NCBI GenBank assembly: GCA_905182855.1
Contig: CAJJDA010000009.1
Location: 189,309 to 253,308, forward strand
DNA: 64,000 bases
Source of the DNA: a gamma proteobacterium HTCC2207
GTDB lineage: Bacteria > Pseudomonadota > Gammaproteobacteria > Pseudomonadales > Porticoccaceae
Reading direction: 5' to 3'
The notes under the pieces were generated by a model. The model did not search any database. It was given only the letters and a program-made list of their open reading frames with translations, and was not told the DNA's origin. The position numbers and the translations under genes are program-made. Of the stretch, positions 28,065 to 54,130 are shown piece after piece (positions within the stretch are counted from its first letter, which is position 1; the number at the start of each line of letters is the position of its first letter).

Positions 28065-28084
28065 AACCATCTTCTTTGTTTGTT
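28065..28084. promoter_or_regulatory. Putative operator, site 1 (AACCATCT-TCTT-TGTTTGTT), overlapping the -35 of TTGTTT-N16-TATAGT
   Basis: Matches the palindrome shared by six island promoter regions. Confidence 0.6.
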
Positions 28085-28146
28085 TTTTAATCGAAACAAG
28101 GTATAGTTTAAAACGCCTTCAACTAATAAATAAAAGGGGCATTTTA

Positions 28147-29118
28147 ATGCCATATCAAAAAGATTTTCTGCTCAAAGCCTACCGCTCGATGAAGACCATC
28201 CGAGAATTCGAAGAGCGCTGTGTCAAAGAGTTTGAGGGGGGTAATATTCCCGGTTTCGTCCATGTGTCAAATGGCCAAGAAGCCATTGCCGTTGCAGCCT
28301 GTATTGACCTCAGCGATAAAGATATCATCGGTAGCACCCACCGCGGGCACGGCCATTGCATTGCCAAAGGCTGTGACATTGGCGCCATGATGAAAGAAAT
28401 CATGGGTAGAGTTACCGGTCTTTGTAAAGGCAAAGGGGGCTCTATGCACATCGCCGATATAGACAAAGGGATGCTCGGTGCTAACGCCATTGTTGGAGGC
28501 GGTCCTCCTTTAGTGAATGGTGCTGCCCTAGCAGCCAAGACTCTAGGCACTAAAAATATCGCCCTCTCTTTTAATGGTGACGGAAGTGCCAATCAGGGGA
28601 CGGTAATGGAAGCCATGAATATGGCGGTTGTGTTGCAGCTACCCCATGTCTTTGTTTACGAAAACAATGGTTATGCCGAAGGCACTGCCGCTAACTATGG
28701 CTTGGGCTGCGACAGCCTGACCGATCGCAATGCCGGCTTTGGTATGCCAGCTGAGTGCATCGATGGCCTGGACTTCTTTGTCACCTATGAAGCGCTGAAA
28801 GTGGCGACCCAGCGTGCACGCGATGGCGGTGGCCCGTCGGCAATAGAAGCCATGTGCGTGCGCTTTGATGGTCACTTTATTGGCGACCCACAACTTTACC
28901 GCGGCACCAATGAGATTAAAGATGCACGTAAGACTCAGGATTGCTTAAAGATCTTCCGTCAGCGCGTTGTCGCCGAAGGCTGGCTAACAGCCGCAACCAT
29001 GAATGCAATTGATAAAGAAATCATGGTCGAAATAGAAAAAGCTGTTGCCGACGCTCTAACTGCGCCGCACCCAGATCCCGCCACGGACCTTATGTCCGAC
29101 GTCTACTGCTCTTACTAA
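28147..29118 (+). CDS. acoA: TPP-dependent dehydrogenase E1 alpha (acetoin dehydrogenase AcoA-like)
   Basis: Motifs IPGFVH, STHRGHGH, GKGGSMH, GDG...NN TPP motif, RFDGHFIGDPQ. Confidence 0.85.
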   Translation: MPYQKDFLLKAYRSMKTIREFEERCVKEFEGGNIPGFVHVSNGQEAIAVAACIDLSDKDIIGSTHRGHGHCIAKGCDIGAMMKEIMGRVTGLCKGKGGSMHIADIDKGMLGANAIVGGGPPLVNGAALAAKTLGTKNIALSFNGDGSANQGTVMEAMNMAVVLQLPHVFVYENNGYAEGTAANYGLGCDSLTDRNAGFGMPAECIDGLDFFVTYEALKVATQRARDGGGPSAIEAMCVRFDGHFIGDPQLYRGTNEIKDARKTQDCLKIFRQRVVAEGWLTAATMNAIDKEIMVEIEKAVADALTAPHPDPATDLMSDVYCSY

Positions 29119-29128
29119 TGGTGTCAAA

Positions 29129-30175
29129 ATGACTAACTATTCTAATGATCCAAAAATAGCCGGCAAGTCCTCATTAAAAACTATCCGCGAAGCGATAAAC
29201 GACGCACTCAGAGCTGAGATGCGCCGTGACCCGACTGTTATCGTACTCGGTGAAGAAGTGTCTGGTGGCGCGGGCTGCCCCGGAGAGGACGATGCCTACG
29301 GCGGTGTTTTCGGCGTTACCAAAGGTCTTATGCCTGAGTTTGGCCGCGAGAGAGTTATCGACACCCCCATCAGTGAAGCCGCCATTATTGGCGCTGCTGC
29401 CGGTGCCGCCAACAATGGTCTACGGCCGGTAGCAGAACTCATGTTCTTCGACTTTATCGGCGTCTCTTTTGATCAGATTTTTAACCAGACTGCTAAGTTT
29501 CGCTACATGTTCGGCGGCAAATCAAAGACTCCTCTGGTTATTCGAGCTACAGTCGGTGGCGGTTGGCGCGCTGGTGCTCAGCACTCCAGTATGCTGCATT
29601 CAATCGTTACCCATATAGCCGGATTAAAAGTGGTAATGCCCAGCAATGCCTACGATGCAAAAGGTTTAATGGTGCAGGCCATTCGCGATGACGATCCGAT
29701 TATTTTTCTCGAACACAAAACAATGTACGACAATACCTGTGAAGTGCCGGACGAGCAGTATGCCATTCCCTTTGGGGAAGCTGCATTCCCTAGGCACGGC
29801 ACAGACGTTACTATTGTTGCCATATCCAATATGGTCACTCGAGCTATTGAAGCGGCCGACATCCTGGCTAAAGAAGGAATCAGCTGCGAAGTAATAGATC
29901 CTCGCACCGTTTCTCCATTGGATGATGAAGCTATTCTTGAGAGCGTTGAAGTGACCGGCAGATTAGTGGTCGTAGACGAGGGTAATCCGCGCTGCGGGCT
30001 TGCCTCCGACATCGCTGGCATAGTCGCCGAGAAAGGTTTTCACAGCCTGATAGCGCCAATTCGCACTGTCACTGCGCCGCACACACCGGTTCCCTTTGCA
30101 CCAGAATTAGAAGATGCCTACATACCCAGTGTAGAAAAAATTCTTGCTGCAGTCCGCGAAGTAATAGGAGGTTAG
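29129..30175 (+). CDS. acoB: E1 beta (AcoB-like)
   Basis: Motifs DTPISE, RPVAELMF, AQHS, EHK, PHTPVPFAPELE. Confidence 0.85.
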   Translation: MTNYSNDPKIAGKSSLKTIREAINDALRAEMRRDPTVIVLGEEVSGGAGCPGEDDAYGGVFGVTKGLMPEFGRERVIDTPISEAAIIGAAAGAANNGLRPVAELMFFDFIGVSFDQIFNQTAKFRYMFGGKSKTPLVIRATVGGGWRAGAQHSSMLHSIVTHIAGLKVVMPSNAYDAKGLMVQAIRDDDPIIFLEHKTMYDNTCEVPDEQYAIPFGEAAFPRHGTDVTIVAISNMVTRAIEAADILAKEGISCEVIDPRTVSPLDDEAILESVEVTGRLVVVDEGNPRCGLASDIAGIVAEKGFHSLIAPIRTVTAPHTPVPFAPELEDAYIPSVEKILAAVREVIGG

Positions 30176-30177
30176 GC

Positions 30178-31911
30178 ATGACAGAAAACATCAAGGCAAT
30201 CAATATGCCCAAATGGGGCATGGAAATGTCAGAGGGCGATGTCACTGCCTGGCACGCCTCAATCGGTGATCAGGTTAGTGTCGGCGACGATTTAATCGAT
30301 GTCGAAACCAGCAAAATCGTCAACACAGTGACCTCTCCCGATAGTGGCATACTCAGAGCTATAGTGGCAGATCCTGGTGAGACCTGCGCTGTCGGGGACC
30401 TTCTGGGTGTGCTGGCATCTGCAGATACTAGCGATGAAGATATCAAGGCGTTTATAGCCAGCCGCTCAGCGGGAACAGTCGCCAAGGAGGCAGAACCTGC
30501 GCCAATAGTGCAGGAGCCCGCCCCTGCGGTGGCTGAGCCTGTACAAGAAATTGCGCTGGCGGCGCCAATTGCTCCAATTGCTGCAATGGTGTCGAGTGAA
30601 GCCACAGCTATGGCGACCCTCGCCGACGGCGACGATGACAGTGCTGTAGCTGCCTCTCCGGTAGCACGTCGTCTCGCAGAAGAGTACGGTGTGAATTTAA
30701 ATAATATTTCGGGTACAGGCCGCCATGGACGCGTATCTAAAAGCGACCTTGAATCTGCGATTACCGACGCTGGTGGCGTTTTAGCGGGCGCCAGCTCGGT
30801 TCGAGCTCCCGGCCTCACCGATTCGAAATCACTGGCCGACGGCGTCGATGATAGCAATGTCTCGGCCTCCCCAGTAGCCCGTCGTTTGGCAATAGAGTAT
30901 GGCGTGAATCTGAACAATATCTCGGGCACGGGCCGCCATGGTCGCGTATCCAAGAGCGATCTTGAAAATGCAGTAACTGCCGCCGGTGGAGAATTAATCC
31001 GTACTAACAACACGGCCAGTACTGTAGTGAAACTGGGTGATGATAGCCATATTAAAGCCACGCCAGTGGCACGGAGGTTGGCAGAAGAGTTAGGGGTCAA
31101 CTTATTAGAATGCCGCGTAAGTGGTGATCGAGGTCGGGTCTGTAAAGCCGATGTGGAAGCCGTTGCCGCTCGCAAAAATAAGCCGTTAGCGCCATCCATC
31201 GACACCTCTGGTTCAATCACTATTGAAAGTCCTTTTGAGTCTGAGGTTTTGACCGGCATGCGCAAGACTATCGCCGGTCGCCTGCAATCCTCTAAGCAAA
31301 CTGCACCCCATTTTCGCGTCCAAATCGATGCCGAAATAGACGCCCTTCTAGCGGTGCGAAAGCAAATAAATGCTGCAAACTCAGCGGCTAAAGTCTCGGT
31401 GAATGATTTTATGGTCAAGGCCTGCGCTGCGGCACTAATGCAAGTCCCTGCAATCAATGTTCAATTCGATGGTGAACAGGTCAAATATTTCAAAGATGCA
31501 GACATTTCCGTTGCCGTTGCCGTTGCCGATGGTTTGATAACACCTATAGTCAGCAGCGCTAATCACAAGGGTTTAATAGCCATCTCTAATGAAGTGCGTG
31601 ATCTGGCGACCAGAGCGAAAATTAACCGCCTCAAGCCTGCTGAATTTGTGGGCGGCAGTTTTTGTATTTCTAATCTCGGCATGTTTGGCATCAAACAATT
31701 TGACGCCATCATTAACCCCCCTCAGGGTGCCATTCTGGCCGTGGGTACCGGAGAACAGCGTCCAGTGGTGAAGGAGGGTCAACTCAGTATTGCGACTGTG
31801 GTCAGCCTGACTTTATCCAGCGATCATCGCATTATTGATGGCGCCGTAGCCGCACAATTTATGTCCATCCTCAAGGGCTATTTGGAACAACCAGCAACCA
31901 TGCTGGGTTAA
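30178..31911 (+). CDS. acoC: Dihydrolipoamide acyltransferase E2 (AcoC-like): one lipoyl domain, three E3/E1-binding domains, catalytic domain
   Basis: Lipoyl site VETSKI, three (S/T)PVARRLA..GR repeats, DHRIIDG. Confidence 0.85.
   Translation: MTENIKAINMPKWGMEMSEGDVTAWHASIGDQVSVGDDLIDVETSKIVNTVTSPDSGILRAIVADPGETCAVGDLLGVLASADTSDEDIKAFIASRSAGTVAKEAEPAPIVQEPAPAVAEPVQEIALAAPIAPIAAMVSSEATAMATLADGDDDSAVAASPVARRLAEEYGVNLNNISGTGRHGRVSKSDLESAITDAGGVLAGASSVRAPGLTDSKSLADGVDDSNVSASPVARRLAIEYGVNLNNISGTGRHGRVSKSDLENAVTAAGGELIRTNNTASTVVKLGDDSHIKATPVARRLAEELGVNLLECRVSGDRGRVCKADVEAVAARKNKPLAPSIDTSGSITIESPFESEVLTGMRKTIAGRLQSSKQTAPHFRVQIDAEIDALLAVRKQINAANSAAKVSVNDFMVKACAAALMQVPAINVQFDGEQVKYFKDADISVAVAVADGLITPIVSSANHKGLIAISNEVRDLATRAKINRLKPAEFVGGSFCISNLGMFGIKQFDAIINPPQGAILAVGTGEQRPVVKEGQLSIATVVSLTLSSDHRIIDGAVAAQFMSILKGYLEQPATMLG
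30619..30990 (+). repeat. Internal tandem duplication (period 213 bp) of the peripheral subunit-binding domain
   Basis: Near-identical ASPVARRLAxEYGVNLNNISGTGRHGRVSKSDLE units starting near 30619 and 30832. Confidence 0.9.
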
Positions 31912-31914
31912 GGA

Positions 31915-33312
31915 GTGGACATGCAACAGTATGATCTAATGATAGTTGGCGGCGGCCCAGGTGGCTATGTTGCAGCTATCCGTGGCGCTCAGTTAGGCTT
32001 CAAGACAGCATTGGTAGAACGAGAGCACCTCGGGGGTGTCTGCTTAAATTGGGGCTGTATACCCACCAAAGCCATGCTGCGGGGTGCCGATATCGCACAC
32101 ACGCTAAAAGAGGCCGAGCACTTCGGTTTCACCATTGATAATGTTAGCTTTGATATCAATAAACTGGTGCAGCACAGTCGTTCGGTGGCGAGCAAACTCA
32201 GTCAGGGTGTTGCCTACCTGATGCAAAAAAACAATATTACTGTGATTGACGGCACAGCTAGTCTGGCCGACAAATGTCGCCTCGAAGTGACCCACAATGG
32301 CGCAGTAACCCAATATAATGCCACGCATATTATCCTCGCTACTGGCGCTCGCGCTCGCAACCTGCCTAATATCGAGATCGACGGTGACTTTATCTGGGGT
32401 GCTCGAGAAGCCATGACACCCACTGCCCTGCCAAACAACCTTCTGGTTATTGGCGCTGGCGCTATTGGTGTCGAATTCGCCAGTATGTATAACGACTTAG
32501 GGACCAATGTCACTCTCGTTGAAGCAGAGACACGCATCACCCCTGCCGAAGACATTGAGATCTCACAGATCGCGGAAAAATCCTTTCAGAAGCGAGGTAT
32601 TAAAGTTCTTACCAACAGTCTGGTTGAATCCGTTGAGCGCGCTGGCACGGGCAGTGTGGCGAGAATTAACGGCCCCGACGGTAAACAGGAACTGGCGTTT
32701 GACCAAGTGATTTTAGCCGTGGGAATCAGAGGCAATATTGAGAGTCTAGGCCTGGAGAAACATGGAGTCCATATGGACAAGGGCTTTTTAATTGCCGACC
32801 AATTTGGCAAGACCAACCTAGCTGGTTTATACGCTGTTGGGGACGTCGCAGGGCCACCTTGGCTAGCCCATAAAGCGAGCCATGAAGCCGTTATCTGTGT
32901 CGAAAAAATAGCCGGTGTTGACGGAGTCAAGCCGCTAAATAAAGATCGCGTGCCGGGCTGTACCTATTGCCGCCCGCAAATAGCCAGTGTCGGACTCACG
33001 GAGGCGCAGGCTGCCGCGGCAGGCCACAGTACCAGAGTGGGCCGCTTTAATCTTAGTGCCAACGGTAAAGCTCTGGCCATTAATGAAGGCGAAGGAATGG
33101 TCAAAACAGTTTTCGATAGCAACACCGGCGAACTACTTGGCGCCCACATGATTGGTGCCGAAGTCACAGAACAGATTCAGGGGTTTGGTATCGCGCAACA
33201 GCTTGAGGCTACAGAGCAGGAACTAGCCCACACTATTTACGCACACCCCACAGTATCTGAAAGCATGCATGAGTCTGTATTAGACAGTCTCGGGCTTTCA
33301 ATTCATCAGTAG
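31915..33312 (+). CDS. lpdA: Dihydrolipoamide dehydrogenase E3
   Basis: Motifs GGGPGG, GGVCLNWGCIPTK, HPTVSE. Confidence 0.92.
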   Translation: MDMQQYDLMIVGGGPGGYVAAIRGAQLGFKTALVEREHLGGVCLNWGCIPTKAMLRGADIAHTLKEAEHFGFTIDNVSFDINKLVQHSRSVASKLSQGVAYLMQKNNITVIDGTASLADKCRLEVTHNGAVTQYNATHIILATGARARNLPNIEIDGDFIWGAREAMTPTALPNNLLVIGAGAIGVEFASMYNDLGTNVTLVEAETRITPAEDIEISQIAEKSFQKRGIKVLTNSLVESVERAGTGSVARINGPDGKQELAFDQVILAVGIRGNIESLGLEKHGVHMDKGFLIADQFGKTNLAGLYAVGDVAGPPWLAHKASHEAVICVEKIAGVDGVKPLNKDRVPGCTYCRPQIASVGLTEAQAAAAGHSTRVGRFNLSANGKALAINEGEGMVKTVFDSNTGELLGAHMIGAEVTEQIQGFGIAQQLEATEQELAHTIYAHPTVSESMHESVLDSLGLSIHQ

Positions 33313-33321
33313 AGTTTATTT

Positions 33322-33753
33322 ATGACCAGTCAAGTTCCATTACACGAGGGTCTATTTACCTGGCCTGCTACTAAACCTCAGTTGCTGGGCAGCCGCTGTA
33401 GCCAGTGCGCCGAAGCCGCTTTTCCAGCACAGCCCGACTGTCGTAGCTGCGGCTCGCGTGACACAACGATTGTCGAGTTGGGGGATCATGGCACGTTGTG
33501 GACCTGGACCATACAGACATTTTTGCCCAAGCATCCCTATCTCAGCGGCGAAACCGCAGACACATTTCGCCCTTACGGCGTTGGCTATGTGGAAATGCCA
33601 GGAGGTGTGCGCGTTGAAGCTCGCCTCAAACCTAATAGCCCGGACCAGCTGAAAATCGGTATGCCTATGCAATTAGATATTATCCCGTTCTGTACTGACG
33701 AAAACGGCGACCAGAGAATGACCTTTGCGTTTAGTGCAGTGGCGGAGGTATAA
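33322..33753 (+). CDS. DUF35 Zn-ribbon/OB-fold protein (thiolase partner)
   Basis: CxxC...CxxC followed by GTLWTWT and an OB fold; adjacent to a thiolase. Confidence 0.88.
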   Translation: MTSQVPLHEGLFTWPATKPQLLGSRCSQCAEAAFPAQPDCRSCGSRDTTIVELGDHGTLWTWTIQTFLPKHPYLSGETADTFRPYGVGYVEMPGGVRVEARLKPNSPDQLKIGMPMQLDIIPFCTDENGDQRMTFAFSAVAEV

Positions 33754-33756
33754 ATT

Positions 33757-34899
33757 ATGGATGTAGCAATTATAGGTATCGGACTTCACCGCTTTGGCCG
33801 CTCACCAGACATGTCAGGGATGCAACAGGGGGCTTCTGCTGTGCGCGCCGCTCTTGCAGATGCCGGTCTCGCCTGGAAGGATATGCAATTTGCCTATGGC
33901 GGCAGTCAAGACGGCGGTAACGCCGATGCGTTAGTTAATGAGCTCGGCCTAACTGGCCTACAGTTTACCAACATATGGAATGGCTGCGCCACCGGCGGAA
34001 GTTCATTACACGCCGCCTATACCGCGATTAAATCTGGCGAATACGATATGGGTGTGGTTGTCGGTTTCGACAAGCATCCCCGCGGAGCCTTCAACCCTCA
34101 ACCCAAAGAATGGGGCTTGGATGAATGGTACGGCGAAACCGGATTAATGCTCACCACGCAGTTTTTTGCTCTCAAAACTCAGCGCTATATGTACGATCAT
34201 GGCATTACTGAAGACGCGTTGATTCGAGTATCTGAGAAAGCCTTTAACAATGGCTCAATTACACCGACTGCATGGCGCCAGCAGGCCTTGAGCTATGAAG
34301 AGATTGCCAGCTCGACCATGGTAAGCGATCCGCTTAGGAAATATATGTTCTGTAGTCCGGCCGAAGGTGGTGCGGCGCTGATTGTTTGTAATGCCGACAA
34401 AGCACATCAGTACTGTAGTAATCCATTATTTATAAAAGCTGCGGCAGTGCGAACTCGGCATTACGGTAGTTTTGAGGTGTTTTCGCCGTCGCAGGCGATG
34501 ACTGTGGCCGATGCACCGACAGTGACGGCTTCAAAGGCGGCTTTTGAGTTAGCCGGTATTGGCCCCGAAGATGTCGACGTGATTCAATTGCAGGATACCG
34601 ACAGCGGTACCGAAATTATGCATATGGCCGAGAACGGATTCTGCGAGCATGGGGAGCAAGAGAAACTCCTGCGCGAAGGTGCCACACAAATAGATGGCCG
34701 CATGCCGGTTAATACTGATGGTGGCTGTCTCGCTAATGGCGAACCCGTAGGCGCATCTGGGCTTCGACAGATCTACGAAGTCTGTGTGCAGCTTCGCGGT
34801 GAGGGCGGCGCAAGACAGGTCGCAAATAACCCTAAAGTGGGATACACCCATGTCTATGGTGCCCCTGGTATTAGTGGCGTCAATATTATTACCAAATAA
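33757..34899 (+). CDS. SCP2-type thiolase-like protein with a non-canonical active site
   Basis: Motifs NGCATGG, NTDGGCLANGEPVGASG, THVYGAPG. Confidence 0.88.
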   Translation: MDVAIIGIGLHRFGRSPDMSGMQQGASAVRAALADAGLAWKDMQFAYGGSQDGGNADALVNELGLTGLQFTNIWNGCATGGSSLHAAYTAIKSGEYDMGVVVGFDKHPRGAFNPQPKEWGLDEWYGETGLMLTTQFFALKTQRYMYDHGITEDALIRVSEKAFNNGSITPTAWRQQALSYEEIASSTMVSDPLRKYMFCSPAEGGAALIVCNADKAHQYCSNPLFIKAAAVRTRHYGSFEVFSPSQAMTVADAPTVTASKAAFELAGIGPEDVDVIQLQDTDSGTEIMHMAENGFCEHGEQEKLLREGATQIDGRMPVNTDGGCLANGEPVGASGLRQIYEVCVQLRGEGGARQVANNPKVGYTHVYGAPGISGVNIITK

Positions 34900-34928
34900 T
34901 TAACATAACGATAAGTAGGAGCTAATCT

Positions 34929-36311
34929 ATGTCTGATTTAATCAAAGTAAAGCAACAGGGCGAAGAACGCTGTGAAGGCATCAGCTATCAGGATCTACTC
35001 AATGACGAAATCATTGATGTGCCCCCTTACTTGCGTGAAAATACTAACCCCTATATGGGTGATGAAGACATTGATGTAGCCCGATGGATTTCACGTGATT
35101 TTCATGAACAAGAAAAAGAAAAGCTATGGCCCAAAGTCTGGCAGATGGCCTGTCGAGAAGAGGATATTGCTGAAATCGGTGATCATCATATTTATGAGAT
35201 CATAGACCAATCTATTATTGTCACCCGCACCGGTGAAAATGAATTTAAAGCCTTTATTAATTCCTGCTTGCACCGCGGCCGTATACTGCGCGACTGCGAT
35301 GGCCATGCTGAAGAATTCGTCTGCCCCTTTCACGGCGCAACCTGGGACATTAACGGCGAATTCAAAGGCATTCCCTGTAAGTGGGACTTTAGCCATTTAG
35401 ACCAAAAGGATATGAGCCTGCCACAGGTCAAAGTCGGCAACTGGGGTGGCTTCGTGTTTATTAATTTCGATGAGAACTGTGTCCCTCTAGAGGATTATCT
35501 CAGCCCATTGCCAGAGCATTTCGCGCGCTTCCCACTGCATGACTACTACAAAGGTGCCCATGTTCAGCGCGTAGTTCAGTGTAACTGGAAAGTAGGAGCG
35601 GAAGCGTTTATGGAATCATTTCATACACTGGAAACCCATAGTGAGATTTTGACTTTTACCGGTGACGCTAATTCACAGTACGACACCTTCGGCGATCATG
35701 TCAGCCGCTCGGTTACCCCTATGGGTGTAGCCAGCCCACATATGCCTGACGTGACTGAAGCCGAAATCATGCGCGATATTCTCGAACTGTCTGGTCGTAT
35801 GGCCACCGATAGTGCAGAGGGCCATGAAATGCCTGAGGGGCTAACCGCGCGTGCCTATGTGGCAGAGACCAACCGTGAAATGTTTAGTGAGATTATCGGT
35901 GAATCCCTAGACCATGCAACTAAGTCAGAGTTGGAAGACGCCATACTCTATATGCTTTTCCCAAATACTCAGGTCTGGACAGGTTATCACGGTAACATTG
36001 TCTATCGTTTTCTGCCCAATGGTGACGACCATAGCAGCTGTATCTTCGAAACCATGATACTACTGCGCTACGCAAAAGGAACCAAGCGGCCGGACCCTGC
36101 AGAGAAAAACATTTTACGCCCAGACCAGGCTTTCAGTGAGGCCCCAGAAATTGGCGGACTGGGACCCGTTTTCGATCAGGATGACAGCAATATGGCCGCT
36201 GTACAAAGAGGTATGATGGCCTCTAAGAAAGGCGCAGTCAGTCTGGCCAGCTATCAAGAAAGTCGTATCCGTCACCTACATCAGACAATAGATAAGTACC
36301 TTAACGCTTAA
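34929..36311 (+). CDS. Rieske non-heme iron oxygenase alpha subunit (1)
   Basis: Rieske ligands CLH...CPFH; iron site ESFHTLETH. Confidence 0.92.
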   Translation: MSDLIKVKQQGEERCEGISYQDLLNDEIIDVPPYLRENTNPYMGDEDIDVARWISRDFHEQEKEKLWPKVWQMACREEDIAEIGDHHIYEIIDQSIIVTRTGENEFKAFINSCLHRGRILRDCDGHAEEFVCPFHGATWDINGEFKGIPCKWDFSHLDQKDMSLPQVKVGNWGGFVFINFDENCVPLEDYLSPLPEHFARFPLHDYYKGAHVQRVVQCNWKVGAEAFMESFHTLETHSEILTFTGDANSQYDTFGDHVSRSVTPMGVASPHMPDVTEAEIMRDILELSGRMATDSAEGHEMPEGLTARAYVAETNREMFSEIIGESLDHATKSELEDAILYMLFPNTQVWTGYHGNIVYRFLPNGDDHSSCIFETMILLRYAKGTKRPDPAEKNILRPDQAFSEAPEIGGLGPVFDQDDSNMAAVQRGMMASKKGAVSLASYQESRIRHLHQTIDKYLNA

Positions 36312-36401
36312 ACTATTTGAGTCGTGCCCCTGCTATTGCAACCCGACGGCTTTTAGATTCTTCGATAGCCCAGACGGGTATGTCGACCTATCTCTGTAGC
36401 A

Positions 36402-36752
36402 ATGACTGACAACAATGTAATTTACGAGTATTTTATGGCAACCACTACACATACCCTATTCCCCGCAGAAGACTTAGCCGATAACGAAAGTGTAGCTGTA
36501 ATGGTCGAGGGCAATGACATCCTCGTCTGTAAAGCTAATGGTAGCTATTACGCAGTAGCTAATAACTGCACTCACCAGAGAGCTAAGCTCGCAGGCGGTC
36601 GGATCAGAAACTGTTTCCTATCCTGCCCACTGCATGGCGTGCGTTTTGACTTGCGCACAGGGGTCCCTCTTGGAGAGCTCACCCGAGTTGGCTTGAAGAC
36701 CTACCCCATTCGCTTAGCAGATGATGGTAATCTGCAGTTGGACATCGATTAG
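36402..36752 (+). CDS. Rieske-type ferredoxin (start possibly 36435)
   Basis: Motifs CTHQ...CPLHG and FDLRTG. Confidence 0.9.
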   Translation: MTDNNVIYEYFMATTTHTLFPAEDLADNESVAVMVEGNDILVCKANGSYYAVANNCTHQRAKLAGGRIRNCFLSCPLHGVRFDLRTGVPLGELTRVGLKTYPIRLADDGNLQLDID

Positions 36753-36754
36753 TT

Positions 36755-37780
36755 ATGAATAAAAACCGCCAGATTGTACTAGCCTCTTATGTCAATGATG
36801 CCGCGCTGCCTGAGAACTTTGCACTGACCGAAGGCCCCATGCCCAAGCCGGGCAAGGGTGAATTTCTACTGCGTAATATGTACTTTTCAATGGAACCTGC
36901 CATACGTGGTTGGGTAGATGGCAAGGCCAATTATTTGCCGCCAATCCCCATCGGAGGCGTGATTCGAGGCCCCTCTGTCGGTCAGGTTATCACCTCTCAT
37001 AATAAGGATTTTGCCGAGGGAGATATCGTTTTTGCCCTCAATCAATGGGAAGATTATTCCGTCTGCCATAGCGATGCTATCCTACTGAAAAAACTGCAAC
37101 CTGAGGCAGACATCCCTCTGTCATACTACGTTGGCTCCCTTGGTGGCGCTGGAACCACGGCGTATATTGGTTTGCATGAGGTGGGGCTAGTTAAGCCCGG
37201 ACAGACCGTTGTGGTCAGTGCAGCGGCCGGCGCTACAGGTAGTATGGTCGGCCAGATAGCCAAGCTATGCGGCTGTAAGGTCATCGGTATTGTCGGCAGT
37301 GATACCAAGGCCCAGCTGATCATTGACCAGTTCGGTTTCGACGCCGCCATCAACTACAAAACAGAAGATGTTACCGCAGCGGTCATAGCCATTGCACCAG
37401 AGGGTGTCGATATTTATTTCGATAATGTTGGCGGCCCAGTCCTCAATGCCCTACTTCTCGCAATGAACGTTTATGGACGTATTGTCAGCTGCGGAATGAT
37501 CGCTGATTACAATCGTACCGACAACCCAAATCCCATTACTAATCTTTGGGAAATGGTGTCGCGGCAGCTGACTATGCAGGGATTTTTATTGCCCACCTAT
37601 CAAGATAAAGTGCCCGCGGCAATGGCCCAACTCGAGGAATGGATTCGCGCAGGCAAGATTACCGTGTTAGAAAATATTACCAGCGGACTGGCCAGCACCC
37701 CGGCCGCATTTTGCGAGATGATGTCTGGTAAGACTGTTGGTAAGGCGCTGGTAAAAGTTGACTGGCCGGTTGATGACTAG
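36755..37780 (+). CDS. NADP-dependent ene-reductase (MDR, prostaglandin reductase/CurA-like) (1)
   Basis: Motifs SMEPAIRGW, VSAAAGATG, YFDNVGG, GKALVKV. Confidence 0.9.
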   Translation: MNKNRQIVLASYVNDAALPENFALTEGPMPKPGKGEFLLRNMYFSMEPAIRGWVDGKANYLPPIPIGGVIRGPSVGQVITSHNKDFAEGDIVFALNQWEDYSVCHSDAILLKKLQPEADIPLSYYVGSLGGAGTTAYIGLHEVGLVKPGQTVVVSAAAGATGSMVGQIAKLCGCKVIGIVGSDTKAQLIIDQFGFDAAINYKTEDVTAAVIAIAPEGVDIYFDNVGGPVLNALLLAMNVYGRIVSCGMIADYNRTDNPNPITNLWEMVSRQLTMQGFLLPTYQDKVPAAMAQLEEWIRAGKITVLENITSGLASTPAAFCEMMSGKTVGKALVKVDWPVDD

Positions 37781-40361: not shown

Positions 40362-40381
40362 AAAAATCAACTGAGATTGTT
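40362..40381. promoter_or_regulatory. Putative operator, site 2 (AAAAATCA-ACTG-AGATTGTT), in a divergent promoter region
   Basis: Shared palindrome; overlaps TTGTTT-N18-TATAGT. Confidence 0.65.
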
Positions 40382-40861: not shown

Positions 40862-40884
40862 TCTTACAGACTGAGGGTATTCGT

Positions 40885-41229: not shown

Positions 41230-41272
41230 ATAAAAGGCTATTGGCTGATAGCTCTGACGGGAGATTAACAGC

Positions 41273-43074: not shown

Positions 43075-43094
43075 AACAATCATGTTTGATGGTT
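43075..43094. promoter_or_regulatory. Putative operator, site 3 (AACAATCA-TGTT-TGATGGTT)
   Basis: Best match to the palindrome; 5 bp upstream of TTGACT-N17-TACTAT (43100-43128). Confidence 0.7.
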
Positions 43095-43680: not shown

Positions 43681-43741
43681 GACACCTTACCGCCGTCTTC
43701 GATTGGACAATAAATTAATAATTAATAACGAGTAATTAAAT

Positions 43742-44191
43742 ATGGTACACCTGCATTCCCACCATGATATCAGTGCACCCAGAGAAACGATTTGGGCCCT
43801 GCTCATGGACTTTGGCAATATCGAAGCCTGGTGGCCAAAAAATGCCCCCATCGATATTGAACGTGTAGAACTGGAGGGAAGTGGTGTCGGTATGACAAGA
43901 CATATCTACAACGTTGGTTTTGATAATGCCGTCAGCGAACGCCTCGACGCCCTAGACACAGAGAATTTTACGCTGCAGCTGTCCATTGTCGGTGAACGCC
44001 CGGCGGGACTGCTGCACTATCAGGCAACGGGTAAGCTAACTGCATTGGATGATGGCGGCTGCCGACTGACCTACGATTCAGAATTTCGTGCCGAGCAGGG
44101 CGGCGAAGATGACGCTAAAGCCTTCCTATTGGGCGCCTATGAACTGATGTACCTAGGCCTCGATGGCGTAGCCAATCAAAGCGCCAAGTAA
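43742..44191 (+). CDS. SRPBCC/START (polyketide cyclase/dehydrase-like) protein
   Basis: ISAPRETIWALLMDF, GVGMTR, VSERL. Confidence 0.82.
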   Translation: MVHLHSHHDISAPRETIWALLMDFGNIEAWWPKNAPIDIERVELEGSGVGMTRHIYNVGFDNAVSERLDALDTENFTLQLSIVGERPAGLLHYQATGKLTALDDGGCRLTYDSEFRAEQGGEDDAKAFLLGAYELMYLGLDGVANQSAK

Positions 44192-44250
44192 ACCGCGCAT
44201 CAAGACAATGAGCGTCCATCATAACCTTACTATTAAAAAGGAATTCGACC

Positions 44251-44567
44251 ATGTTAGCTATCTCCGCAAGAATTGAACTAGCCCCTAAAGACGCCGCTTC
44301 CTATATTGCCAGCCGCCCAAAAAATCATTGCACCGACCCGGGCAGAATCTGGTTGTCAGCTTTATTCTATCGGTGTGGATATCAGCCTGTCCAATGTCAT
44401 CTGGATAACGGAGCAGTGGGCAGAGTGAAGCCGCGCTTATGGCGCATTTAGGCATGCCCCATATTGTGGATTTTATGGCGTTTTGTGGCACCGTCGAGAT
44501 CACGGATATGAGTATCGTTAAATACGACGTATCAGCCGCTGGCCCGCTGGTACTGCCAGAGAATTAA
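44251..44567 (+). CDS. ABM domain protein (two apparent frameshifts, near 44310 and 44422)
   Basis: Reconstructed as ...PTRAESGCQLY...ITEQW.SEAALMAHLGMPHI...VLPEN*; good RBS upstream. Confidence 0.72.
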
Positions 44568-44607
44568 GCAGTGCGCTAAACCCTGAATCAGGCGAGGAAT
44601 CAAAAGC

Positions 44608-45783
44608 ATGACTATTGCAGAAAACTATAACCGCATTGTTGCCCGCATCATTGATGACGTTGACAACAACACCACAGACCAGACTGAAAGCACCTTATCG
44701 GTCCCCTCCAAATCGTATACCGATCCGGACCTCTGGAATCAGGAAATGGATCTTATATTTAAAAAAGTGCCCATTTTTGTCGCCCTAACCCAAGAGCTAC
44801 CCAATGCGGGCGACTACAAAACATTTCAGTTTCTGGATAAGCCGCTGCTGATCACTCGTCTAAAAGATGGCTCTGCGAGGGTGATGCTCAATGTTTGTGC
44901 CCATCGTGCCATGACCATAGCCACCGAGCAATGTGGTAACAAGTCGCGATTTACCTGCCCCTATCATGGCTGGATGTACAGTAATGATGGTGTGCTGCGC
45001 GGGGTTGCCGATCAGGACAAATTTGGTGATTTTGACAAGCAGACTAATGGCTTAACCCAACTCCCCGTCTACGAGCGCGGCGGTATGATATTTACCGTTT
45101 TGGAACCCGGTGACGAAGCGGTAGATTTTGATGGTTTTTTAGGGGGCATGATGGAAGACATCGGTCGTCTAGGAATGGAAAGCTGGCATTACTGCGGTCA
45201 ACGTAAGATCGAGGGAGCCAACTGGAAAGTCGCCTATGACGGCTATCTAGAGGGTTATCATTTTGCGGCGGCGCATCCAGATACGATCGCGCAACGCACC
45301 TACTCAAACGTCATGCAATTTGATTCCTATGGGCCCCACACCTTGATCTGTTTTCCACACTTGGCGATTAAAGAAAACCTCGGTGGGGTGGCACCAGAGG
45401 ATTATCACAAACACGAAAACAACGGTTATGATTTTATCCGGACACTCTTCCCAAATATCTCCGTCTTTGTGGCACCAGAGATCACACTAATCAGTCAGAT
45501 TGTTCCCGGCCCCAAACCTAATCAGAACACCACGTACCTGAACTTTATTCATCCCAGTAAGCCCGACGGAGAAGATACGGCATTGCAAGAGATGATGGAC
45601 TTCTTTCAGGATGTCGTGGATGTCGAAGACTACCAAGTGGGTCTGGCCATCCAGAAAGGTCTAGAAGCGAACGCTCATGCCAATGTCACGTTCGGTCGCA
45701 ATGAAGCCGGAAATCAGCTGTTCCACAAGTGGGTTGAATGGTATCTAGGCAAAGACCCCACTGCGCCAAAACCCACACTGTAG
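44608..45783 (+). CDS. Rieske non-heme iron oxygenase alpha subunit (2)
   Basis: CAH...CPYHGW; EGYHFAAAH. Confidence 0.92.
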   Translation: MTIAENYNRIVARIIDDVDNNTTDQTESTLSVPSKSYTDPDLWNQEMDLIFKKVPIFVALTQELPNAGDYKTFQFLDKPLLITRLKDGSARVMLNVCAHRAMTIATEQCGNKSRFTCPYHGWMYSNDGVLRGVADQDKFGDFDKQTNGLTQLPVYERGGMIFTVLEPGDEAVDFDGFLGGMMEDIGRLGMESWHYCGQRKIEGANWKVAYDGYLEGYHFAAAHPDTIAQRTYSNVMQFDSYGPHTLICFPHLAIKENLGGVAPEDYHKHENNGYDFIRTLFPNISVFVAPEITLISQIVPGPKPNQNTTYLNFIHPSKPDGEDTALQEMMDFFQDVVDVEDYQVGLAIQKGLEANAHANVTFGRNEAGNQLFHKWVEWYLGKDPTAPKPTL

Positions 45784-45816
45784 ACGAGTAGGCACACTAA
45801 CGCTAAAGGGTGAACA

Positions 45817-46623
45817 ATGAGTATTCATGAGAAGCGCGCAGGTAGAATAAATTGCTTACTGATCGCGGGAGGTGTCTGGCATGACATTGATCATGCGCGA
45901 TTGGAGTTACTGAAATTACTCTCAGAAGACGAACGCTTTCGCGTGCGCGTTTTTGAGGACTATGAAAATCTGCAAGCCATCGAAGAAGCGGACTTTATTG
46001 TTAGCTATACCTGTAATGTTGTGCCCTCTCTCGGCGCCCAGGAAGCCCTCAAAGCCTGGGTCGAAAAAGGCGGCCGCTGGTACGCACTGCACGGCACTAA
46101 TTCAATCATCCGGCTGATGTCCAGCGGTCTGTATGGCACACCAGACTGGGCACCGCTATTTGTGGAGACTCTAGGGTCTATGTTTCGCTCGCACCCTCCA
46201 ATCGCACCCTATCAGGTATCGGTTGCTGATCCACATCACCGCTTGGCTCAGGGTATTGAGCCCTTTGAATCCGACGATGAACTGTATCTAATGAAAACCT
46301 ATGGCGACCTCCATGTGATATTGGACACAGAGTATGGCGGTAAGGCAGAAGGCTTTGAAGAAGATGAGTGGGAACATGCCCGCCATCCAGTTTTCTATAC
46401 CCACAATGTTGGCGAAGGCGAGGTTCTGTATTTGACCCTGGGCCACTGTCGGCATCATCATGACATGCAGCCAATGCTCGACTATTGGCCGACTATGGAA
46501 CGCGGCTCATGGGACTTACCAGTGTTTTATCAGCTGTTAAGACGAGGTATTCAATGGGCTATAGAGCCTATCGACAAGGCGACGGCTGATGCCTTAGCTA
46601 AGGCCCGCGCTGCAGTGAAATAA
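45817..46623 (+). CDS. ThuA-like domain protein
   Basis: GGRWYALHG, F.SHPP, DELY, GEVLYLTLGH. Confidence 0.8.
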   Translation: MSIHEKRAGRINCLLIAGGVWHDIDHARLELLKLLSEDERFRVRVFEDYENLQAIEEADFIVSYTCNVVPSLGAQEALKAWVEKGGRWYALHGTNSIIRLMSSGLYGTPDWAPLFVETLGSMFRSHPPIAPYQVSVADPHHRLAQGIEPFESDDELYLMKTYGDLHVILDTEYGGKAEGFEEDEWEHARHPVFYTHNVGEGEVLYLTLGHCRHHHDMQPMLDYWPTMERGSWDLPVFYQLLRRGIQWAIEPIDKATADALAKARAAVK

Positions 46624-46639
46624 AATTCAAGACGTCACA

Positions 46640-49533: not shown

Positions 49534-50664
49534 TTAAAGTTGGTTATAGCGTGAAAGGTGAGAATCTCTCGATCCAAACATCACACTAATTGCCGCCAAG
49601 CGTTTAAAATAATGACCGACATTAAATTCGTCGGTCGTACCAATACCGCCGTGCAGCTGTATCGCATTATGCGAAACAAACCGCCCAGCCTTTCCCATTT
49701 TTGCTTTTAATGCGCTGACGCACTGCGCCGCATCGGGCGCCGAATTATCTAATTTCCACGCCGTAGCCATAAGTAGCGAGCGCGTTAATTCAATCTCCAT
49801 ATACATATCGGCCATGCGATGGCGCAATACCTGAAAACTTGAGAGGGGTTGGCCAAATTGCTTACGCTGTTTGGTATAGTCCACGGTGGCCGCCATCAGA
49901 GCATCCATAGCACCTACCGCCTCGGCACAGACCGCGACCACCGCACGATGAAACACTGGCAGCGCCAGTTCGTAGGCATCGCCTACCTCACCCAAGACGG
50001 CGTCTGGACCAACACTGACATTATTAAGCTCCAGTTCGCAGGCCGACCGCCCATCGTAGGTTTTATAATTTTTCCTGCTTAGTCCAATCGCGTTTTTATC
50101 CAACACAAACAGGCTAATACCTTGGCCAGAGCTCTGGTCTGTAGCCTCTGTGCGCGCCGTCACGAGAAAAAAATCAGCCTCAGGGCCGTTGAGCACCACC
50201 GTCTTCTTACCCGATAGCAGAAACCCGCCAGCGCTCGATTCCGCGCGCATCTGCACCTGTAACGGATCGCCAACGCTGCCCTCTTCAAGGTACGCCAACG
50301 CGCCTTGCAACTGGCCGGCAATCAAGCCCGAAAGATACTGTTCTCTGATAGCAGTCTGGCCACCAACCTCAATTAAGCCACCGACCAAGACAACGGATTC
50401 CAGGTAGGGCTCAAGCACGAGATACTTCCCAAACTGCTCACATAAAATCATAGTCTCCAATGCGCCGCCTCCGAATCCACCAGCGTCCTCTTGGAAAGTC
50501 ATTGCCAACCAGCCTAGATCCGCAAAGGTCTGCCACTGATCAGCATTAAATCCAGCTGACTCTTTAACCGTAGCCTGACGATTTTCAAAGCTGTAATTAT
50601 CACGAAGATACTTTTCGGCGCTGTCCCGCAGCATCGTTTGTTCTTCGCTGTATTCAATAAACAT
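49534..50664 (-). CDS. Acyl-CoA dehydrogenase, second subunit of a heteromeric pair (PimD/FadE-like)
   Basis: RKQFGQPL and IQLHGGIG; lacks the C-terminal catalytic Glu motif. Likely start MFIEYSEEQ. Confidence 0.88.
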   Translation of the reverse strand: MFIEYSEEQTMLRDSAEKYLRDNYSFENRQATVKESAGFNADQWQTFADLGWLAMTFQEDAGGFGGGALETMILCEQFGKYLVLEPYLESVVLVGGLIEVGGQTAIREQYLSGLIAGQLQGALAYLEEGSVGDPLQVQMRAESSAGGFLLSGKKTVVLNGPEADFFLVTARTEATDQSSGQGISLFVLDKNAIGLSRKNYKTYDGRSACELELNNVSVGPDAVLGEVGDAYELALPVFHRAVVAVCAEAVGAMDALMAATVDYTKQRKQFGQPLSSFQVLRHRMADMYMEIELTRSLLMATAWKLDNSAPDAAQCVSALKAKMGKAGRFVSHNAIQLHGGIGTTDEFNVGHYFKRLAAISVMFGSRDSHLSRYNQL

Positions 50665-50692
50665 ATTGTTAGATACCCGACTTAAAGTTTTG

Positions 50693-51880
50693 TTAAAGGA
50701 GCAGAACGCGCTTAGCAATAATGTCTCTTTGAATTTCTGCGGTACCGCCATAAATCGTTGCAGACCGGTTATTAATGTACTCGGGCATCGTAGTCAGGCC
50801 GCAAGCGGGACCTATGACCTCGCCCTCAAAGCTAGGCGTCAAGGCATCCAGCTGTTTGACAAACGCGTGCTCAGCCATGATTTCAAGACTTAGCTCATTA
50901 AATCGCTGACCAATTTCTGTACCCATAACCTTGGTTAAAGATGAGAGAGGTCCTGCATTTTCACCCGCTTCAAAGGCACCCTTAACGCGCAATTCTGTGA
51001 ACTCCAAAGCAAGAGCGTCCACAGCAACGTCGGCGAATTTGGCGCTAAAAACCGGATTGTCTTTCCACAGCACCCGATTCGCTGAATACTGCGAATTAGC
51101 CTGACGCCTAATTTTTGCCATTTGCTTTTTATGGTCGATCGCGTAGTTGTGACCTCCGCGCTCAAATTCGAGGAGAGACTTGGCCACTTGCCAGCCCTGA
51201 TTTTCTTCACCAACGAGATTAGCCGCAGGTACACGTACGTCAACAAAATGAATGTGCATGTGACCGTGTGGTGCGTCGAGACCTACGATGGGCTCAACCG
51301 TTAAGCCCTCGGTATCCATATCGATCAAGATGAAGCTAATACCCGCTTGCGGTTTCCCCTCCTTAGAGGTTCTCACCAAACAAAAGATGCGATTGGAATG
51401 CTGCGCATAACTGGTCCATATTTTCGAGCCATTGATAATATAATCATCGCCCTCACGCACCGCAGCCGTCATCAAAGATGCAAGATCGGATCCGGCACCT
51501 GGCTCAGAATAGCCCTGACACCAGGCATCCTCGCCGGACAGTATTTTTGGTAGATACTGCTGTTTCTGGGCCTCAGTACCACATTGCATAAGCATAGGGC
51601 CCAGCATCTGCAGACCCAGAGCAAAAAGCGCGGGCGCATTGGCCAATTTGCACTCTTCTTGAAAGATATAGCGCTGACTCAGTGACCATCCCGTACCGCC
51701 ATATTCAAGTGGCCAATCGGGTGCCACCCAGCCTTTTTTATACAAAATTTTGTGCCAGGCTAAACCGGCGTCAAAATCTGAAAACACACTGGTCATGAGT
51801 TCGCCTGCACGCTTGATTTCCGGCGTCAGTGACTCTCTTAGAAAGGCCTGAACTTCACCACGAAAACTACTGTCTTTCAT
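50693..51880 (-). CDS. Acyl-CoA dehydrogenase, catalytic subunit (PimC/FadE-like)
   Basis: Motifs WCQGYSEPGAGSDLA, NGSKIWTS, IYGGTAEIQR. Confidence 0.9.
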   Translation of the reverse strand: MKDSSFRGEVQAFLRESLTPEIKRAGELMTSVFSDFDAGLAWHKILYKKGWVAPDWPLEYGGTGWSLSQRYIFQEECKLANAPALFALGLQMLGPMLMQCGTEAQKQQYLPKILSGEDAWCQGYSEPGAGSDLASLMTAAVREGDDYIINGSKIWTSYAQHSNRIFCLVRTSKEGKPQAGISFILIDMDTEGLTVEPIVGLDAPHGHMHIHFVDVRVPAANLVGEENQGWQVAKSLLEFERGGHNYAIDHKKQMAKIRRQANSQYSANRVLWKDNPVFSAKFADVAVDALALEFTELRVKGAFEAGENAGPLSSLTKVMGTEIGQRFNELSLEIMAEHAFVKQLDALTPSFEGEVIGPACGLTTMPEYINNRSATIYGGTAEIQRDIIAKRVLLL

Positions 51881-51918: not shown

Positions 51919-51966
51919 AACAAACAAACTTGTTTTTATTCTATGGTTAATGTGTAGGTATTGCAA
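51919..51966 (-). promoter_or_regulatory. Sigma70 promoter TTGCAA-N17-TAGAAT with operator site 4 (AACAAACA-AACT-TGTTTTTA, 51919-51938) over the start site
   Basis: Near-consensus -35/-10 on the minus strand; the palindrome abuts the -10. Confidence 0.65.
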
Positions 51967-52146
51967 TGTAATTACGTATTGCCTGGGACCAATCGTTAAC
52001 CCTCTTATACACATTAATTGTTAAAGGATGGAGCACCATCTCACAACAATCGAATACTTAGATTATTTGATTTTATTGTGCGGTAAAACCAAGGAAATGT
52101 GCTGGCAACTACAAAGCCTCGCGGGACCGATCCGCGCCAGTGATTG

Positions 52147-53727
52147 TCAGTTCCCAGAGCCTATAAGCGCGGTCACTTTTTTCCGCAAGACGTCTTTACG
52201 TACCTTACCTGAGGCCGTTTTCTCCAACACATCACAGAGCTCAATCCGCTGAGGCCATTTTTGCTTGGCCAAGCCACTCTGCTCTAGAAATAACTGCAGC
52301 TCAGGCAGGCTCATTCCTGCCGCATCTCGCATAACCAGGTAGACGCAGACGCCCTCACCTAGACGTTCATGAGGCATGGCGACTACTGCAGCCTCGCTGA
52401 TCATCTGGTGCTGATGCAACACATCTTCTATCTCCCGAGCGGAGATGTTTTCGCCACCGCGAATAATAATGTCCTTTTTGCGATCTGTGATGACAATCGC
52501 GCCGTCAGTGGTGATGTGTCCGATGTCGCCGGTTGAAAAGTATCCATTGCTGTCAATGGCATCTCGCGTTTGCTCTTCTTCACCATAGCCAAGCATAAGC
52601 GCGGGGCCCTTCACTAAAATTTCTCCGTCAGCACCTTGGGTCAACTGATTGCCCTCATCATCGACAACAATCACCTCCCAGTTACTTATTCGACCGTCGG
52701 TGGTGGCCGCAAGACTCTCCTCTTCAGGCTGCAGCCAACCGACGGTAATCAGCGGCGCCTCAGTGCAGCCATACACCCTAAACGCCCGACAGTTAGCAAA
52801 CACCTGATGGGCATCGCTGATCAGTGTTGGTGGCACCGAGGCGCCGCCACAGGCAAAAAAACGTAATGTGGGCAGATCCAATGAATCCCGCTTAGCCTTT
52901 TCAACTAATTCTTGTAAAAATGGCGTTGCGCTGACGCATCCCGTCGCTCCAACTTCCTCAATATATGCCGCAGCCTTATTGACATCCCAGCGTTCCATAA
53001 ATGCCGTCTTGCAGTCACTTAAAAACGGCAGCTCAATGCCGTTGGCAAAACCGGTGATGTGCGTCACTGGTGACGGCATTAACATCACATCACCGGCGCC
53101 CAACCCCCAACCATCAATGCCATTGTCGATCGCCCGCGCCAACGAACGATGCGAATGCTTGACTGCCTTAGCGCGGCCCGTCGTGCCCGACGTATACATA
53201 ACCACTTTAACTGCCTCCATATCGGTCGGCTGTTTAATTGGTAGGCTGCTCCCAGTTGGCTGAATCAAATCCTCATAGCGTGACGGGCTATCTGCAGTAG
53301 GCCCCTGACGTACGGAAATTACATGATCTAAATTAGGCAACTGCGGTAACAGGCGGTCAATCATCTCGGGGAAATTGTGACCACGATAGACTCCCGGAAT
53401 AAAGAGACAGCGCGAACGACTGTCGGCAAGAATAAAGGCTAGCTCTCGATCACGATAGATCGGTATGACAGGATTAATTATCAGGCCAAGCCACACCGCC
53501 GCTATATCGATCGCAACGGTCTCTCGCCAATTGGGTAACTGAAAGCTAATGACATCGCCCGCCTGCAGCCCCATCTTGGACAGAGATGACGCGAGAGCCA
53601 TAGCCTCCTCAAATATGCTGCCAAAACGAATATGCTCGCCCCCCTCAAGATAGACAACCACATCATTCGGCGAACTTATCGCCTTCTCTTGAGCAAAATC
53701 AGCGAGATTTTTAGTACGTAGCTGCAT
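52147..53727 (-). CDS. AMP-dependent acyl-CoA ligase (cyclohexanecarboxylate-CoA ligase/FadK-like)
   Basis: Motifs YTSGTTG, YGCTE, TGD, IIRGGENIS, SGKVRK; FQLPNW N-terminal motif. Confidence 0.88.
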   Translation of the reverse strand: MQLRTKNLADFAQEKAISSPNDVVVYLEGGEHIRFGSIFEEAMALASSLSKMGLQAGDVISFQLPNWRETVAIDIAAVWLGLIINPVIPIYRDRELAFILADSRSRCLFIPGVYRGHNFPEMIDRLLPQLPNLDHVISVRQGPTADSPSRYEDLIQPTGSSLPIKQPTDMEAVKVVMYTSGTTGRAKAVKHSHRSLARAIDNGIDGWGLGAGDVMLMPSPVTHITGFANGIELPFLSDCKTAFMERWDVNKAAAYIEEVGATGCVSATPFLQELVEKAKRDSLDLPTLRFFACGGASVPPTLISDAHQVFANCRAFRVYGCTEAPLITVGWLQPEEESLAATTDGRISNWEVIVVDDEGNQLTQGADGEILVKGPALMLGYGEEEQTRDAIDSNGYFSTGDIGHITTDGAIVITDRKKDIIIRGGENISAREIEDVLHQHQMISEAAVVAMPHERLGEGVCVYLVMRDAAGMSLPELQLFLEQSGLAKQKWPQRIELCDVLEKTASGKVRKDVLRKKVTALIGSGN

Positions 53728-53855
53728 CGTTATCCTTTAATCTAATCGTCGGGGTTATTGAGGTCGATTGAGCGCGATCTAAACTGGATAGTCAGTCGCC
53801 AGTTCTGACGATATCGCCGTACATGTTGCGTCGGTAAGTTACCCCAATTGCGAAA

Positions 53856-53875
53856 AACATACAACATTGATTGTT
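53856..53875. promoter_or_regulatory. Putative operator, site 5 (AACATACA-ACAT-TGATTGTT)
   Basis: Shared palindrome upstream of the CoA ligase. Confidence 0.6.
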
Positions 53876-54046
53876 TGTGGCTAATCCAGCATAGCTAGTC
53901 ACTGACTCATTGATTAGAGTCTAGAACGCCATGCTACCTTTACTGAGCCAAGCCACTACGCATATTACTACGCCTTGGCAAATTTACCGCAAGATCGAAA
54001 TATGCAGCATCTATGTCAGTCTACTGATTTTGGCCGTTAAAATAGG

Positions 54047-54130
54047 TTGAAATCTAACGTCAGTAGGTTTATATTCGACGGGCTATAACAAAAAAAGCAG
54101 GTGCGATTGTTTTAAAGTACGCTGATTGTT
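54047..54130 (+). promoter_or_regulatory. Sigma70 promoter TTGAAA-N17-TATATT, followed by operator site 6 (AAAAAGCA-GGTG-CGATTGTT, 54092-54111) and an extra half-site TGATTGTT (54123-54130)
   Basis: Promoter spacing and palindrome read directly from the sequence. Confidence 0.62.

Follow-up and report, generated by a model that had tools for sequence, protein, structure and literature searches.

What binds the palindrome AACAAWCA-N4-TGWTTGTT that recurs upstream of the gene units of a catabolic island in a bacterium of the SAR92 clade (family Porticoccaceae), and how much of the island would it control? The palindrome was noted in a window of 64,000 nucleotides, which is the whole stretch of DNA analysed here (positions 189309-253308 of contig C9 of assembly G000; the assembly comprises 1.64 Mb in 14 contigs and is 76% complete). 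An earlier note made on this window had listed six sites of 20 bp and proposed that they define an island regulon. The reading preferred here, with a probability of about 0.8, is that the palindrome would be the operator of a TetR-family repressor controlling a catabolic cluster that extends over about 42 kb and contains about 40 genes. The regulator is most likely a TetR protein of 235 amino acids, predicted from a gene at the right edge of the same island.

The palindrome is present at all six places listed in the earlier note, with 1-3 mismatches at each, and the housekeeping half of the window, where no site had been noticed, indeed contains none. The numbers given there have to be raised: two further intergenic sites lie just right of the window, 0.8 and 4.4 kb past its end, making at least eight operators, and the conserved element measures about 24-26 bp including A/T-rich flanks. 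The other properties claimed for the sites (a fixed 4-bp spacer, an intergenic position and a location upstream of a transcription unit) hold for all eight, and essentially no transcription unit of the island is without one of these operators. The whole window contains 7 matches at three mismatches or fewer, where chance would give 1.05, and a count of 7 was not reached in any of 100 dinucleotide shuffles; the whole assembly contains 29 such matches, which is close to the chance number. Matches with two mismatches or fewer number eight in the whole assembly; they all fall in the interval 217-314 kb of contig C9, seven of them inside 41 kb.

The genome-wide scoring proposed in the note was done with a 26-bp matrix trained on three related genomes only and then run over G000. 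The top eight matches in the 1.64-Mb assembly are the eight island sites, with 21.9-31.5 bits. The ninth match (18.0 bits) is located inside a gene, and the best intergenic match outside the island has 14.6 bits. All eight strong matches are found within 41 kb, vs none in the other 174 kb of intergenic DNA; outside the island, G000 contains about 5 matches above 14 bits per Mb. In three simulated third-order Markov genomes the best matches had 17.9, 20.1 and 28.5 bits. This specificity, together with the conservation described below, supports the claim that the sites define a regulon of the island.

The consensus of the profile, symmetrised and drawn from 29 sites, is the dyad aaAACAAnCA-N4-TGnTTGTTtt. 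Positions A2, C7, G14 and T19 are invariant, A1, A4, A5 and A8 are strong, and position 6 is A or T. The spacer has the same length of 4 bp in 29 of 29 sites and its bases are uninformative, while the A/T-rich flanks reach positions -3 and +24, beyond which the columns hold about 0.1 bit or less. The two arms match the consensus independently: compensated departures on the opposite arm were found in 0 of 48 cases, so the symmetry is that of a protein dyad and not of a hairpin. Exact dyad counting, in which island and other intergenic DNA were compared as the note had suggested, leads independently to the same element. The top enriched dyads were AAAC-N10-GTTT and AAACA-N8-TGTTT, in a register shifted by -1 or +3 relative to the one first noted. 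These offset dyads were considered as a separate motif and rejected, being explained by an internal AACA/AnCA repeat within each half-site.

The first operator (28065..28084; 28.4 bits) is located 62 bp upstream of the E1alpha start, and the operon behind it (28147-37780, plus strand) comprises E1a-E1b-E2-E3-DUF35-thiolase-Rieske oxygenase-ferredoxin-ene reductase. Its right half, TTTGTT, was read by eye 16-17 nucleotides upstream of a conserved TATAGT of E1a, that is, at the -35 position. The second operator (40362..40381; 23.0 bits) lies between two divergent units, ER349-SDR-GFA (40307-38049, minus) and SnoaL-ABM-SnoaL (40448-41704, plus). Here TTGTTT rightward and TTGATT leftward are each 17-18 nucleotides from a conserved -10-like hexamer, TATAGT preceding SnoaL1 and TACCTT preceding ER349 (read by eye in alignments of four genomes). 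The third (43075..43094) is the top match of the genome, with 31.5 bits, and lies between divergent ER338a (42980-41964, minus) and the SnoaL-cyclase-Rieske oxygenase-ThuA unit (43240-46623, plus). A promoter-finding tool identified a TTGACT-17-TACTAT promoter here, and the operator ends 5 nucleotides ahead of its conserved -35, TTGACT (43100).

The fourth operator (51919..51938; 26.0 bits) is located 38 bp upstream of ACAD395, the first gene of an operon (51880-46695, minus) with two acyl-CoA dehydrogenase (ACAD) genes, two SDR genes and a P450 gene, in that order. It begins at the last base of the -10 of a TTGCAA-17-TAGAAT promoter (51966-51938, minus; same tool), so that the start site is covered. 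The fifth (53856..53875; 28.7 bits) lies 128 bp upstream of the acyl-CoA ligase gene (53727-52147, minus), and its half TTGTAT was read by eye 17 nucleotides from a conserved TAACTT before that gene on the minus strand. The sixth (54092..54111; 21.9 bits), 112 bp upstream of the TonB-dependent receptor gene (54224-56437, plus), is located 16 nucleotides downstream of the -10 of a TTGAAA-17-TATATT promoter (54047-54075; same tool), at about +10 to +30. The fifth and sixth operators (53856-54111) bracket the receptor promoter; in two related genomes, G016 and G035, a gap of only about 65 bp separates them, which may leave room for cooperative binding or looping.

The seventh and eighth operators are the two beyond the window. 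The seventh (AACAGTCAaggaTGTTTCTT; L001:821-840, extrapolated window position 64821; 24.5 bits) lies 75 bp upstream of the first gene of the SDR266 unit, on the minus strand; this gene and its operator are just right of the window, and the seven-gene part inside it (56723..64000) has the Pfam content SDR-SDR-SDR-Rieske oxygenase-lipoprotein-ene reductase-SDR. No clear overlap of this operator with a core promoter was found in the conserved alignments. The eighth (AACAAACAttacGGATTGTT; L001:4448-4467, extrapolated window position 68448) lies upstream of ACAD409, in front of the ACAD-kinase-tetR unit. Two isolated half-sites had also been reported. The one at 27275..27282, upstream of a ferredoxin gene (27485-27805, plus), is a decayed full site: it scores below 10 bits in G000, and full sites with 1 and 3 mismatches occupy the equivalent place in relatives G033 and G035. 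The one at 54123 is not conserved and is not counted.

The three promoters found with the tool (third, fourth and sixth operators) are all conserved in the four genomes compared, and several sites share bases with a conserved -35, -10 or start-site position, in agreement with the repressor geometry described in the note. By their sequence and spacing, the half-sites of the first, second and fifth operators would serve as -35 hexamers, and at the second a single dyad would serve two divergent promoters. The varied positions of the operators (at the -35, over the start site or at +10 to +30) fit steric repression and not a fixed promoter element.

Conservation was examined within the genus, where G033, G016 and G035 (the last being SAR92 clade bacterium H921) contain the whole block in synteny between ctaA/cytC and lysS/prfB. 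Seven of the eight operators are found in these three other species at matching distances from orthologous gene starts, which bears out the conservation in orthologous promoters that the note had proposed to look for. In the four genomes the distance is 57-64 bp for E1a, 34-38 bp for ACAD395, 101-112 bp for the receptor and 117-128 bp for the ligase. At the second operator the half-sites are nearly invariant, with a single variable column, and the spacer varies; the third is conserved in all four genomes, and the seventh is kept at 22-28 bits in nearly all tetR loci of the genus that extend far enough. The eighth has a weaker counterpart in relatives, with 19-22 bits, located upstream of an extra open reading frame (enoyl-CoA-hydratase-like by eye) that is absent from G000. 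Over seven site families, 12% of the half-site columns vary in the four genomes, against 61% in the spacer and 76% in the outer flanks (Fisher p about 1e-19, a value inflated by kinship).

The motif also follows the presence of a tetR gene. Among the 36 genus genomes G001-G036, an orthologue of the island tetR with 70-75% identity was identified in nine, and the island oxygenase in the same nine plus one fragmentary assembly; HTCC2207 also encodes the TetR protein. Five genus genomes bearing tetR contain 9-14 sites, vs 1-6 for a reversed control, and five genus genomes without it contain 1-4 sites, vs 1-4 for the control.

The note had placed the regulator gene elsewhere in the genome, which has to be corrected. 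A search for TetR_N in G000 identified six genes, one of them inside the island, only 1.1 kb past the right-hand window end (C9:254453-255160, equal to L001:1145-1852, minus strand), where it comes after an ACAD-kinase pair of the same orientation. This concrete candidate agrees with the guess of a dimeric TetR-type repressor. No other DNA-binding domain was identified with Pfam among the approximately 42 island genes, and the island gaps contain no credible open reading frame for a small regulator. The protein has a PF00440 helix-turn-helix at residues 44-89, with 42.5 bits against a cut-off of 24. Its AlphaFold model has nine helices (predicted local distance difference test score 83, predicted template modelling score 0.74), and a Foldseek search with it gave 106 PDB matches at E<=0.001, where every listed match was TetR-family, with probability 1.0 and template modelling (TM) scores of 0.4-0.69. 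By sequence, matches in the PDB cover only the helix-turn-helix, with E values of 1e-7 or higher; NCBIfam gave only sub-threshold matches for this protein, and its database homologues are all named merely TetR/AcrR family. The first 22 residues at the N-terminus are disordered, and a basic stretch, KRPKRNEK (residues about 22-30), comes next, before helix 1. Just before helix 1, the stretch GWQAEKS..T (residues 31-40, alignment A1) is invariant across the whole TetR subfamily; with the preceding basic arm it could contact the A/T-rich flanks of the operator.

Relatives of this TetR were scanned in one genome per species. There were 145, and the best 80 of the 145 loci were kept, with 52-76% identity. 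These 80 loci belong to Porticoccaceae, Oceanicoccus, Pseudomaricurvus, Zhongshania, Halioxenophilus, Halieaceae/Luminiphilus, Parahaliea and Chromatocurvus. In nearly all of them a site of 19-28 bits was identified 60-240 bp upstream of the tetR match, and in total they contain 144 matches of at least 16 bits in 485 kb. In the other genera tetR is divergent from E1a-E1b-E2 or from DUF35-thiolase-oxygenase, and behind it come further members of this gene set (SDR, SnoaL and oxygenase genes). In whole-genome pattern searches the sites clustered around tetR, with 9 of 13 in Pseudomaricurvus alcaniphilus, 10 of 13 in Zhongshania borealis, 5 of 10 in Luminiphilus syltensis and 6 of 6 in Parahaliea aestuarii; the first three genomes contain perfect 20/20 matches. 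The 19-28-bit upstream sites in these genera would suit the autoregulated transcription factor that the note had proposed to look for; in G000 the tetR promoter region has only a 13-bit site. Within the SAR92 genus the sites upstream of tetR are weaker (8-19 bits), and autoregulation would run mainly via the operator of the ACAD-(kinase)-tetR unit.

The mechanism proposed is that of an ordinary TetR circuit, and such circuits form a very common class. Without inducer, a TetR dimer or a pair of dimers would sit on operators that overlap the -35, the -10 and start site or the early transcribed region, and would thereby block RNA polymerase. A substrate of the pathway or a coenzyme A-thioester intermediate would bind the C-terminal domain, and the protein would be released. 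A broader statement, to which we give even odds, joins several parts: a hitherto unrecognised regulon of about 40 genes for a hydrophobic, probably alicyclic or isoprenoid-like substrate, present in several Cellvibrionales families, where half-sites containing TTG double as divergent -35 elements, so that one repressor unit would shut two promoters.

Several points weigh against the assignment of the motif to a TetR repressor circuit. The link between protein and motif rests on co-localisation and co-occurrence, and the DNA missing from a 76% complete assembly could hold more regulon members or another regulator. The 13-bit site at the G000 tetR promoter is at background level, and in the other genera the site upstream of tetR doubles as the site of the divergent E1a or DUF35 unit, by which the site alone does not show what binds it. 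The tool found no promoter on the strand of the gene at the first (E1a) and second (ER349/SnoaL1) operators, and the promoter hexamers in general are consensus matches or were read by eye, not mapped start sites. Finally, the 28.5-bit chance match in one of three Markov simulations means that single sites alone are no proof. The incomplete assembly, the weak tetR promoter site and the five other TetR genes elsewhere in the assembly would also suit a true operator of some other transcription factor whose gene would lie beyond the island or in the unassembled 24% of the genome, the island TetR having another target. This is improbable, given that in several families the motif accompanies the tetR orthologue and in nearly all 80 loci occurs directly upstream of that gene, that genus members without this tetR have only as many sites as the control, and that this TetR is the sole DNA-binding gene found in the island.

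Somewhat less probable again is that the palindrome is an activator site or a special promoter part, such as the target of an alternative sigma factor or an UP element. The coincidence of TTG-containing half-sites with the -35 at several promoters points in this direction, as do the UP-element-like flanks and the operator of the SDR266 unit, which has no clear core-promoter overlap; against it are the position relative to the conserved -10, which differs by site, and the dyad symmetry with fixed spacer. Members of the TetR family are, moreover, mostly repressors. Least of all can the matches be taken as chance occurrences in A/T-rich intergenic DNA, a dispersed repeat or an RNA hairpin, an explanation that is very improbable and that we regard as already refuted. 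The motif is indeed A/T-rich, its 29 loose matches in the genome are about the chance number and one simulation produced a strong match; the clustering of the eight strong matches, the confinement of conservation to the half-sites with no compensatory arm changes, and the orthologous positions kept across species and genera all speak against it. A repetitive extragenic palindromic (REP) sequence or miniature inverted-repeat transposable element (MITE) was specifically rejected, because the sites have no common sequence beyond the core and their spacers and outer flanks vary far more than their half-sites.

The TetR circuit preferred here can be compared with CamR (camphor operon), KstR/KstR2 (steroid catabolism), PaaR and Bacillus FadR. 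The likeness consists of a one-component repressor gene in or beside a catabolic cluster, imperfect palindromes at many cluster promoters that overlap core promoter elements, an N-terminal helix-turn-helix and a nine-helix fold; in most genera the present tetR is divergent from a regulated operon. Unlike these cases, sequence orthology is lacking, the PDB matches being confined to the helix-turn-helix and the structural ones to TM scores of 0.4-0.69, and the operator sequence presumably differs from theirs as well. PsrA is the TetR regulator of fatty-acid degradation in Pseudomonas and Shewanella, with the motif AAAC-N2-4-GTTT. It shares the half-sites rich in AAAC and GTTT, a regulon with acyl-CoA dehydrogenases and a CoA ligase, and a length of about 235 amino acids; however, the AAAC and GTTT cores of the island operator are 10 bp apart (in the AAACA-N8-TGTTT register) and not 2-4 bp, and the island genes are rich in oxygenases rather than those of plain beta-oxidation. 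A PsrA orthologue was rejected: 2fbq (PA3006) matched with E 6e-4 over residues 40-91 only, the helix-turn-helix, with a TM score of 0.38.

The binding modes of QacR and SimR, among TetR proteins, may also be comparable. Each half of the operator has about 10-12 conserved bases with the internal AACA/AnCA repeat, and together with the 24-26-bp footprint this appears to exceed the usual contact of a single dimer. The disordered basic arm KRPKRNEK predicted before helix 1 would be like that of SimR.

Literature searches on the half-site strings, and on SAR92 or Cellvibrionales together with TetR, returned nothing relevant, and the regulon is not previously described. SAR92 and OM60/NOR5 are abundant coastal heterotrophs whose regulation is almost unstudied, and if the reading is true the carriers include members of both of these marine groups (in the second, Luminiphilus). 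The operator delimits a coherent accessory regulon of about 40 genes without annotation, found also in several other families. The ligand of the repressor should be the substrate or an early intermediate of the pathway; cultured hosts are H921, HTCC2207, Zhongshania and Luminiphilus syltensis, and the motif can be used for finding regulon members in metagenomes.

From 28147 to about 68300 (extrapolated window coordinates) the island comprises, by Pfam, a complex of E1alpha, E1beta, E2 and E3 of the 2-oxoacid-dehydrogenase-like type, and a thiolase-like protein paired with DUF35; the alpha subunits of three Rieske oxygenases, a Rieske ferredoxin and one P450; a PimC/PimD-like ACAD pair, many SDRs and four CurA-like ene reductases; four SnoaL-fold proteins with ABM and cyclase-fold proteins; and an acyl-CoA ligase, a TonB-dependent receptor and an ACAD with an APH-type kinase. 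No equivalog-level match was identified in NCBIfam for the key enzymes of the island. Its left-hand neighbours (matE, ctaA and a cytochrome c gene) and its right-hand neighbours (lysS and prfB) are housekeeping genes. The base composition of the island is no different from the rest of the window. The block is accessory, its oxygenase being present in 18 of 60 genus genomes searched, and is always located between ctaA/cytC and lysS/prfB in the four genomes compared. Steroid-catabolism gene matches and cholesterol-degrading isolates have been reported in Cellvibrionales (PMC5790920). The label of steroid cluster was rejected for this island, as the Pfam scan of its genes gave no extradiol dioxygenase, meta-cleavage hydrolase or KstD-type gene.

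Some further features of the island and its relatives were noted. The E2 subunit (30178-31911) contains three separate matches to the E3-binding domain and one lipoyl domain. The SDR gene of the ER349 unit (region 38485-39253, minus) is split into two overlapping open reading frames, 38485-38862 and 38840-39253, and is contiguous in relatives; the split could be a frameshift or an assembly error. The adjacent ACADs (49534-51880, minus) match the PimC/PimD (large/small subunit) models with about 339 bits, the cut-offs being 624 and 653, which suggests a heteromeric ACAD for bulky or dicarboxylic acyl-CoA. An ACAD and an APH-type kinase are located side by side upstream of tetR (L001:2062-4319, minus), the kinase gene missing in G016 and G035; this pair presumably resembles ACAD10/11 and the LvaA/LvaC arrangement of a kinase plus an ACAD for 4-hydroxyacyl-CoA. 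Finally, in G033 (L016-L019) inserts of about 1.1-2 kb, absent from G000, were identified between Fer2 and E1a and between ACAD409 and LysS. They consist of tandem units of roughly 100 bp containing GATCTCTCACATGCGTTCGAGATGACA and are MITE/REP-like in look.

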